This document shows positions 4,388-5,355 of a DNA stretch of 64,000 nucleotides, piece after piece (the stretch's first letter is position 1; every line of letters starts with the position of its first letter). The notes beneath the pieces were generated by a model, which was given only the letters and a program-made list of their open reading frames with translations, ran no database searches and was not told the DNA's origin. Where the stretch lies: NCBI GenBank assembly GCA_000165345.1, contig CM000435.1, forward strand, positions 416,001-480,000, read 5' to 3'. The position numbers were made by a program, and so were the translations under genes.

Positions 4388-5355
4388 TCATAGAAAGCGA
4401 GGTAAGTTAGTTTTTAAATACCATTGGAAACCTAACTAAATAATAAATACAATAAATTGAAGAGAGAAAAGTGTAAATTCATGTATTTTCTCTTCAATAC
4501 ATTCTATTTACTTGGCGTTTCTGATGATGATTATGAGAATATTCTTTTTAGCCTTTCCCTATCAGATAAAAAAAAAGGAATCATAGGCTAATGTGAAAAT
4601 TCTCTCAATTTTTAAATTAAAAAATAAATTTTAACTATTTAATAAACTTTTATTTGCAGAAATCAGAACATCTTTTATCAAGAGGAAGAAAAGTTGGAAG
4701 ATGCCCGGATGAACATTGTAGATCAAAATCTCCAAGCGGTCAGCCAGGAAAATCAGTTGAAGAATTATGTACATGCGGAAAACATATTTGCCCAGCTCCA
4801 TTACATGATTCAATTTCTTTTCAGGCTGAGAGCTCCTATAACACAGAATTTAAGCAGTGGGAACTACCAACTTTCCCAAAGCCAGTTCCAGAAGAGTTGC
4901 CAAAATCTATCCCTTTTGACTCTGATTCTAGTTACCATATGGACTATCGAAAGTGGGACTTACCAAAAAAGATTGTCAGACCACCAGAGCAATTCTCTGA
5001 ATCACCTGAAAATCGTGACTTCATGACAAGTTACCAAAGTAACTTTAAGCAATGGGAACTTCCAAAATTCAAGAAACCTCAGCCACCTCCAGAAGTCGTT
5101 TCTTCTCCTTATGGCAACATCAATTCAGTCTACAGAGAAAATTATCAGCAATGGGATCTCCCTAAAAAGATTGTTAACCCCTCTGAAATTTACAGTCCAT
5201 CTAAGGAGGATCGAAATTTTGAGACAGTCTACAGGAACTCCTATCAAGGCGTACAACCTCCCGTCTGCCCTGTTAGTCTTCTTCCCCCTATTCCTCATCC
5301 TCCTCCTGGCAGACATACTATGTTTTGGGATTCAGTCTCTAAAAATTGGTACTAG
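4388..5355 (+). CDS. SAXO/MAP6-related (SPM1-like) microtubule-associated repeat protein. Two exons: join(4388..4411,4660..5355), intron 4412..4659 (GTAAGT...TTTGCAG).
   Basis: Exon 1 encodes MSAFIESE followed directly by GTAAGT. The acceptor gcag at 4656-4659 restores the frame into the long ORF. N-terminal Cys-rich segment [33 protein letters not shown]. Four repeats with period 32-33 aa: FKQWELP / YRKWDLPKKIV / FKQWELPKFKKP / YQQWDLPKKIV. Pro-rich C-terminus. Confidence 0.5.

Follow-up and report, generated by a model that had tools for sequence, protein, structure and literature searches.

A two-exon gene of Cryptosporidium parvum encodes a probable SPM1 orthologue of the SAXO/MAP6-related Mn-motif family

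Introduction

SPM1 of Toxoplasma gondii is a microtubule inner protein of extended shape that follows one protofilament; each of its 32-residue R domains, corresponding to one Mn motif, fills one 8-nm tubulin dimer, and conserved S/T and F/Y residues mark the ends of a short helix bound at the intradimer alpha/beta interface (PMC8144581). In T. gondii, SPM1 is required both for the localisation of TrxL1/2 and for detergent resistance, head-to-tail association of SPM1 through its terminal domains has been proposed, and the same binding mode is predicted for all SPM1 homologues (PMC8144581). At least four repeats are needed for microtubule localisation in T. gondii (PMC12905489, PMC8144581). Here, we describe a gene on the plus strand, at positions 4378-5355, of a stretch of 64,000 nucleotides (nt) of contig CM000435.1 (assembly GCA_000165345.1, positions 416,001 to 480,000), which is referred to as the window. 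We argue that this gene is very probably the Cryptosporidium parvum orthologue of SPM1, the apicomplexan member of the SAXO/MAP6-related Mn-motif family.

Proteins of the SAXO family are recognised by two motifs. Motif 1 is [GR][KT]CVC[ESR][LI]CTCGK[HC][KR]C (Dacheux et al. 2012, PMC3280300), and motif 2, [PK]SLPFE[GA]E[TS][NT]YRS[ED][FY]GPKPLP, has S/T and F/Y six residues apart (PMC3280300). A Cys-Pro (CP) motif in the most C-terminal Mn-like module is a further feature of the family, whose members have a proline content of 11.6-20% and an isoelectric point (pI) of 8.25-9.05 (PMC3280300).

Sporozoites of C. parvum contain two rigid, stable microtubules, and merozoites contain pairs (PMC8464796). 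In 2012, Cryptosporidium was the sole non-flagellated organism noted to have a SAXO orthologue (PMC3280300). A 2026 review that cites Tran et al. 2012 includes Cryptosporidium spp. among the organisms with SPM1 and mentions conserved termini and, for C. muris, 5-6 repeats (PMC12905489). TrxL1 is found in most apicomplexans, and TrxL2 is absent from Cryptosporidia (PMC8144581).

Results

The encoded protein is related to SPM1 and SAXO1

In-silico splicing, guided by reading the sequence between positions 3800 and 5900, yields a product of 239 residues. When this protein was compared with PDB chains by phmmer, the Toxoplasma 'Microtubule associated protein SPM1' (7tnq/7miz) was matched at E=2e-23, in four aligned stretches that cover the N-terminal Cys motif, the repeats and the C-terminal tail. 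Also matched were 'Stabilizer of axonemal microtubules 1' (8ou0_D, E=2e-11) and the STOP family protein DMIP1 (9e78, E=4e-4), to which the PENRDF segment of module 2 aligns, and no MAP6 chain was found at E<=10. By BLASTP, the identity to T. gondii SPM1 (TgSPM1) is 31% over 252 columns. Residues 25-53 align to TgSPM1 residues 109-136, and residues 197-239 align to TgSPM1 residues 309-351, where VYRNSYQGVQPPVCPVSLLPPIP...MFWDSVSKNWY is paired with ...VFWDPDTKQWY.

A profile of five Cryptosporidium sequences, searched against 1.84 billion representatives, found 321 proteins at E<=1e-3 and 87 at E<=1e-10. TgSPM1 is among the matches (P0024, E=2.5e-29), and so are metazoan proteins of ~470 residues that score 186-221 bits on the Pfam SAXO1-2 model. 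Several of the matches inspected share both terminal domains. The SPM1-type C-terminal tail is present in P0020, P0023, P0025, P0026, P0030 and P0038, and one of these, P0026, looks like a Plasmodium SPM1, a judgement made from its sequence and not from a database label. A 13-residue match to Pfam Clr5 was set aside as spurious.

Modular architecture of the protein

The motif [FY][KRQ][QK]W[ED]LP is found in the translation at residues 72, 104, 137 and 170, with spacings of 32, 33 and 33 residues. One or more matches to this motif occurred in just 2 of 200,000 composition-preserving shuffles. Since even a single match is so rare in shuffled sequences, four motifs in register are not due to chance. 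A fifth, degenerate module, TVYRNSYQGVQPPVCP, begins 33 residues on, at residue 197, and carries the Cys-Pro motif. The protein therefore has modules of 32, 33, 33 and 33 residues followed by a terminal one, to be compared with the minimum of four repeats in T. gondii. S/T and F/Y are six residues apart in all five modules, and KSIPFDSDSSYHMDYRKWDLP parallels SAXO motif 2.

Pairwise comparison of the modules showed that modules 1 and 3 are identical at 15/32 positions and modules 2 and 4 at 18/32, while unlike pairs among modules 1-4 share 8-9/32 and pairs with the terminal module share 5-8/32. Modules 1-4 are thus arranged in an A-B-A-B pattern, with types represented by 'IPFDSDSSY' and 'PENRDFMTSY'. 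We rejected the idea that this pattern is a novelty of Cryptosporidium because the top profile matches P0020, P0025 and P0038 alternate likewise. In the orthologue of the gastric species C. serpentis (P0004, encoded on L004), the fourth Mn module has a degenerate core (CADIPNDTLRQLSLNTHNIS versus INSVYRENYQQWDLPKKIV, columns ~165-185 of alignment A1), and this orthologue may have one functional module fewer.

The N-terminus contains Cys at residues 23, 28, 45, 47 and 52. SAXO motif 1 is matched at 12 of its 15 positions: the first two Cys are replaced by S and E, and [KR] by I, and the last three Cys are kept. Across the five Cryptosporidium sequences, 21 of the 29 positions in residues 25-53 are invariant. 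At the other end of the protein, 29 of the 43 positions in residues 197-239 are invariant, including the unbroken segment C211-P220. The Cys-Pro motif of the last module (YQGVQPPVCPVS, residues 203-214), with C211-P212 invariant in the five species, is placed as in SAXO proteins, and the proline content of 13.8% lies within the SAXO range. AlphaFold2, run on the five-sequence alignment, predicted no fold (mean predicted local distance difference test score 51, predicted template modelling score 0.15), which fits a filamentous protein that becomes ordered only on the microtubule lattice.

These observations agree with a first-pass annotation of the window, which had described a SAXO/SPM1-like protein with a Cys-rich N-terminus and four anchors of this motif at spacings of 32, 33 and 33 residues, and had called for the homology comparison reported above.

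A micro-exon is joined to the main reading frame by a conserved intron

The SPM1/SAXO gene is real and has two exons (Table 1). The codons of exon 1 are ATG TCA GCA TTC ATA GAA AGC GAG, and an in-frame TAA lies six codons 5' of the ATG. The GC content of the intron is 23%, compared with 41% for exon 2. If unspliced, the reading from the ATG would run into a stop two codons past the donor (MSAFIESEVS, then stop). The frame of exon 2 is closed by a stop 13 codons 5' of the acceptor, and the earliest in-frame ATG of exon 2 encodes Met102. The splice is therefore needed to translate the conserved N-terminus from an ATG. The first-pass annotation had correctly recognised the acceptor at 4660 and the eight-codon peptide MSAFIESE, but it placed both the ATG (4388) and the donor (4412) 10 nt too high and so arrived at an intron of 248 nt. 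The true ATG is at 4378 and the splice is 4401/4660, with an intron of 258 nt; the letters at 4412-4413 are TT, not GT. An Rfam scan of positions 3200-6600, including the intron, gave no match at E<=1, so there is no evidence of an intron-hosted RNA.

A phase-0 GT..AG intron is found at the same site in all five genomes examined, namely C. parvum, C. ubiquitum, C. ryanae, C. felis and C. serpentis. Variants of the micro-exon peptide in other Cryptosporidium are MSAFVESE, MSAFLESE and MSEFVESE, and the changes are mostly at third codon positions. The intron varies in length: C. parvum, C. ubiquitum and C. ryanae have 234-292 nt, C. felis and C. serpentis only 52-53 nt. At 175 positions the introns of C. 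parvum and C. ubiquitum are identical, with blocks that include TTTTCTCTTCA and TCTCTCAAT.

A Logan contig of 1,522 nt (L001, from SRR31831731) is colinear with the window on both flanks and joins 4401 directly to 4660. Its source species is ~90% identical to C. parvum in protein. Since the five genomes examined all have an intron at this site, the economical reading is that this intron-less contig represents a spliced transcript, intron loss being less likely, although it is no proof of splicing in C. parvum itself. The coding region of the contig is 83% identical in nucleotides to that of C. parvum and 86% to that of C. ubiquitum, and fits no named species compared. The differences between C. 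parvum and the contig fall at first, second and third codon positions in the numbers 23/11/90, with 79 synonymous and 25 non-synonymous codons, and the pattern against C. ubiquitum is similar. This distribution over codon positions indicates that purifying selection acts on the whole SPM1/SAXO reading frame.

Table 1. Features of the SPM1/SAXO gene in the window, and the corresponding first exon and intron in other Cryptosporidium species
Feature	Positions	Strand	Description
Exon 1 (micro-exon)	4378-4401	+	ATGTCAGCATTCATAGAAAGCGAG = MSAFIESE, ATG + 7 codons, phase 0
Intron	4402-4659	+	258 nt, GTAAGT...TTATTTGCAG, GT..AG
Exon 2	4660-5355	+	residues 9-239 and TAG stop at 5353-5355
N-terminal conserved domain (SAXO motif 1-like, Cys cluster)	4708-4794	+	residues 25-53
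Mn-like module 1 (type A)	4831-4926	+	residues 66-97, SSYNTEFKQWELPTFPKPVPEELPKSIPFDSD; S66/F72
Mn-like module 2 (type B)	4927-5025	+	residues 98-130, SSYHMDYRKWDLPKKIVRPPEQFSESPENRDFM; S98/Y104
Mn-like module 3 (type A)	5026-5124	+	residues 131-163, TSYQSNFKQWELPKFKKPQPPPEVVSSPYGNIN; T131/F137
Mn-like module 4 (type B)	5125-5223	+	residues 164-196, SVYRENYQQWDLPKKIVNPSEIYSPSKEDRNFE; S164/Y170
Terminal Mn-like module and C-terminal conserved domain	5224-5352	+	residues 197-239, TVYRNSYQGVQPPVCPVSLLPPIPHPPPGRHTMFWDSVSKNWY; T197/Y203
C. ubiquitum, first exon and intron	L006 1525-1816 (intron)		MSAFVESE; intron 292 nt; annotated in public model
C. ryanae, first exon and intron	L002 4025-4258 (intron)		MSEFVESE; intron 234 nt; annotated in public model
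C. felis, first exon and intron			MSAFVESE; intron 52 nt; missing from public model
C. serpentis, first exon and intron			first exon 11 codons; intron 53 nt; annotated in public model

Public gene models

Positions 1878-7855 of the window are 99.88% identical to the C. parvum chromosome record CM109967.1, and the spliced product matches, residue for residue, the C. parvum 'STOP repeat protein' (KAL5367478.1, QOY40481.1 = CPATCC_0007420, WKS78850.1). Current models of C. parvum, C. hominis, C. meleagridis, C. tyzzeri and C. ubiquitum contain the micro-exon. Public annotation and the literature already cover the gene, its exon structure and its family.

That gene finders unaware of the intron would mis-start this gene, as the first-pass annotation had predicted, is borne out by several models. 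The original C. parvum Iowa II model EAK90604.1 (244 residues) has no Met and runs into the intron (KINFNYLINFYLQ, followed by KSEH...), and there is a partial C. hominis model. In C. felis, the model (230 residues) begins at an internal Met (MEHLL...) and omits the micro-exon and the 52-nt intron, which are present at L003 3922-3997 (JABXOJ010000011.1), and the C. canis models (220 residues) begin at MGKCPDE. Truncated or mis-started public models are among the proteins P0002, P0008, P0010, P0013 and P0015. An exact look-up of the exon-2-only product in the protein collection found no match, and the 138-residue product that would start at Met102 is not present in that collection.

Neighbouring genes

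Synteny is kept in C. parvum, C. ubiquitum, C. felis, C. ryanae and C. serpentis, with a KDEL-receptor-like gene and a small open reading frame (ORF) upstream on the minus strand and an exportin-7-like gene downstream. In the window, the small ORF (2870-3142, minus strand, 90 residues) lies between the KDEL-receptor-like gene (1424-2458, minus strand) and the SPM1 gene. Annotations of C. parvum, C. ubiquitum and C. felis include it at the syntenic position and record no Pfam family for it; it has 168 residues in C. ryanae and is uncalled in C. serpentis. In the region 6316-6510 (plus strand), the exportin-7-like gene, 3' of the SPM1 gene, also begins with a short first exon (ATG at 6316, MSLDPSQLSQLEGLCESFYG), followed by a GTAAGT...TTGCAG intron of ~130 nt and a long ORF (GDVNQQKQ...); these boundaries were read by eye and are approximate. 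Further along, the product of the ORF at 10711-11124 (plus strand) corresponds to the C-terminal portion of a Rab-type small GTPase and ends in the prenylation-like motif GGCSC. As this ORF begins mid-protein, the gene presumably has upstream exons.

Discussion

The C. parvum protein resembles TgSPM1 (TGME49_263520; PDB 7MIZ, 7TNQ) in its terminal domains and its repeats. Both have an N-terminal motif of the CTCGxHxC type, tandem Mn-motif repeats of ~32 residues, a CP motif in the last module, and a C-terminal tail of the form CPVSxLPxxP...FWDxxxKxWY. A difference is that TgSPM1 has an N-terminal extension of ~100 residues, which the C. parvum protein lacks. With the SAXO family (TbSAXO, PfSAXO, mammalian SAXO1/SAXO2; PF05217) it shares motif 2, the CP motif and a high proline content, together with a Cys motif that partly matches motif 1, and the repeats of SAXO1/STOP-family proteins resemble the C. 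parvum modules of the B type (PENRDFMTSY). It is, however, a protein of 239 residues and 5 modules, compared with ~470 residues and ~12 modules in the SAXO family, and C. parvum has neither flagella nor cilia.

Two other systems are worth comparing. Vertebrate MAP6/STOP and MAP6d1 likewise have the Mn module, a microtubule-binding element that confers cold and nocodazole resistance, but the C. parvum protein has no Mc modules and has a Cys motif of the SAXO motif 1 type, which is absent from MAP6 (PMC3280300). It would work like an Mn-motif protein and is not a member of MAP6. Chlamydomonas FAP363, from ciliary doublet microtubules, is similar by description: this filamentous inner protein has Mn motifs, places a short helix at the interface within the dimer and repeats every 8 nm; as described, its six Mn motifs extend over two neighbouring protofilaments, whereas SPM1 follows one (PMC8144581).

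Several observations weigh against the assignment to SPM1, or limit how far it can be carried. TgSPM1 has six near-uniform repeats (LPPSLPF..S.YR.E[FY]..KPLP), in contrast to the 4+1 modules, with two alternating types, of the C. parvum protein, and the core of the repeat is W[ED]LP in C. parvum and KPLP in TgSPM1. Given the Trp core and the two alternating module types, the contacts of the C. parvum protein with the lattice may differ in detail from those of TgSPM1. The calculated pI of 7.04 is neutral and falls outside the basic range of SAXO proteins. The match to Pfam PF05217 (SAXO1-2), at 19.5 bits and E=5.4e-4, is under the gathering threshold of 26.5 bits; homology to the family named in the first-pass annotation is supported by the phmmer and profile searches, and the Pfam match is weaker than was implied. 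C. parvum has no classical subpellicular microtubule array (PMC8464796), and for this reason the target structure in C. parvum is an extrapolation. Our literature search returned family-level mentions only, and neither localisation nor knockout nor structural studies of the protein in Cryptosporidium came up. As to the Pfam score, TgSPM1 itself has no match to SAXO1-2 at E<=0.01, so that the model is tuned to metazoan SAXO1/2. The differences from TgSPM1 are variations within the family.

How the protein may act is suggested by homology with T. gondii SPM1. We argue that it would lie inside stable microtubules, on the luminal face, stretched out along a single protofilament. Each module would occupy one 8-nm tubulin dimer, the five modules would span ~40 nm, and the A/B alternation would give rise to a 16-nm sub-period. 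In each module, the short segment from S/T to F/Y (S-x-Y-x-x-x-F/Y) would fold into a small helix docked at the intradimer interface of alpha/beta-tubulin, and the conserved termini would link the molecules head to tail. The protein would make the lattice more stable to cold and detergent and would recruit TrxL1, a thioredoxin-like protein. In C. parvum, the substrates are likely to be the stable microtubules of sporozoites and merozoites, and possibly those of microgametes.

It is conceivable that the micro-exon is a coincidence, that the intron is retained and that the protein starts at the TTG at 4654 or at Met102. Prokaryote-style ORF calling does give a TTG-start ORF of 233 residues at 4654-5355, the same product occurs in Logan gene calls (P0016), and older public models left the micro-exon out. 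We give this possibility almost no credence. C. ubiquitum, C. ryanae and C. felis retain the micro-exon peptide and its phase-0 intron, the changes being mainly synonymous, the first exon of C. serpentis at the same site has 11 codons, and L001 joins the two exons exactly. Moreover, a start at Met102 would remove the conserved Cys domain and module 1, and exon 2 offers no earlier ATG. The lower GC content of the intron (23% against 41% in exon 2) and the presence of the micro-exon in five current species models point the same way.

If the two-exon protein is accepted, its function could still be other than that of SPM1. It could be a MAP6-like protein that acts outside microtubules or is anchored in a membrane, with palmitoylated N-terminal Cys tethering microtubules to the pellicle or the Golgi. 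In MAP6, a palmitoylated N-terminal Cys cluster does target the Golgi (PMC3280300), and the C. parvum protein has five Cys among its first 52 residues. This is nevertheless very unlikely, because the Cys motif is of the SAXO motif 1 type, which MAP6 does not have, because TbSAXO was found neither at the Golgi nor in palmitoylation analysis (PMC3280300), and because the closest PDB relatives include chains of Toxoplasma cortical microtubules, in which SPM1 is luminal (PMC8144581). Another possibility is a generic SAXO protein serving a different tubulin structure, such as the centriole, the spindle or the microgamete cage, and not an equivalent of SPM1 on cortical or sporozoite microtubules. 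The SAXO1-like features of the repeats (the W core and the PENRDF-type B modules), which TgSPM1 lacks, would fit such a protein, as would the position of Cryptosporidium as the sole non-flagellated organism noted with a SAXO orthologue (PMC3280300) and the tubulin structures that microgametes also have (PMC12905489, PMC8464796). The terminal domains argue otherwise and make this highly improbable: they are specifically of the SPM1 type, the tail is common to TgSPM1 and several top matches, and the one metazoan SAXO-like match that we read (P0034) has the CP motif without the SPM1 tail. Since Toxoplasma SPM1 is present on conoid fibres as well as on intraconoidal and subpellicular microtubules (PMC12905489), the two readings are not exclusive.

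We therefore return to the identification as the C. parvum orthologue of SPM1. A bolder proposal, for an organism with no flagella and only two sporozoite microtubules, would be that it is a minimal SPM1 with an A/B luminal repeat of 16 nm (two dimers), that the two long microtubules of the sporozoite and the microgamete microtubule cage depend mainly or wholly on it for their stability, and that its SAXO-like arrangement is ancestral and gave rise to the uniform repeats of Toxoplasma and Plasmodium SPM1. We offer this tentatively and consider it unlikely as a whole.

As the gene, exon structure and family are already public, our results carry little weight as a discovery. They confirm the micro-exon model and its conservation throughout the genus, and show that the models of C. 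felis and C. canis, the old Iowa II model and one partial C. hominis model are truncated or mis-started. They also point to a compact candidate through which the unusually few and very stable microtubules of Cryptosporidium zoites might be labelled or destabilised.

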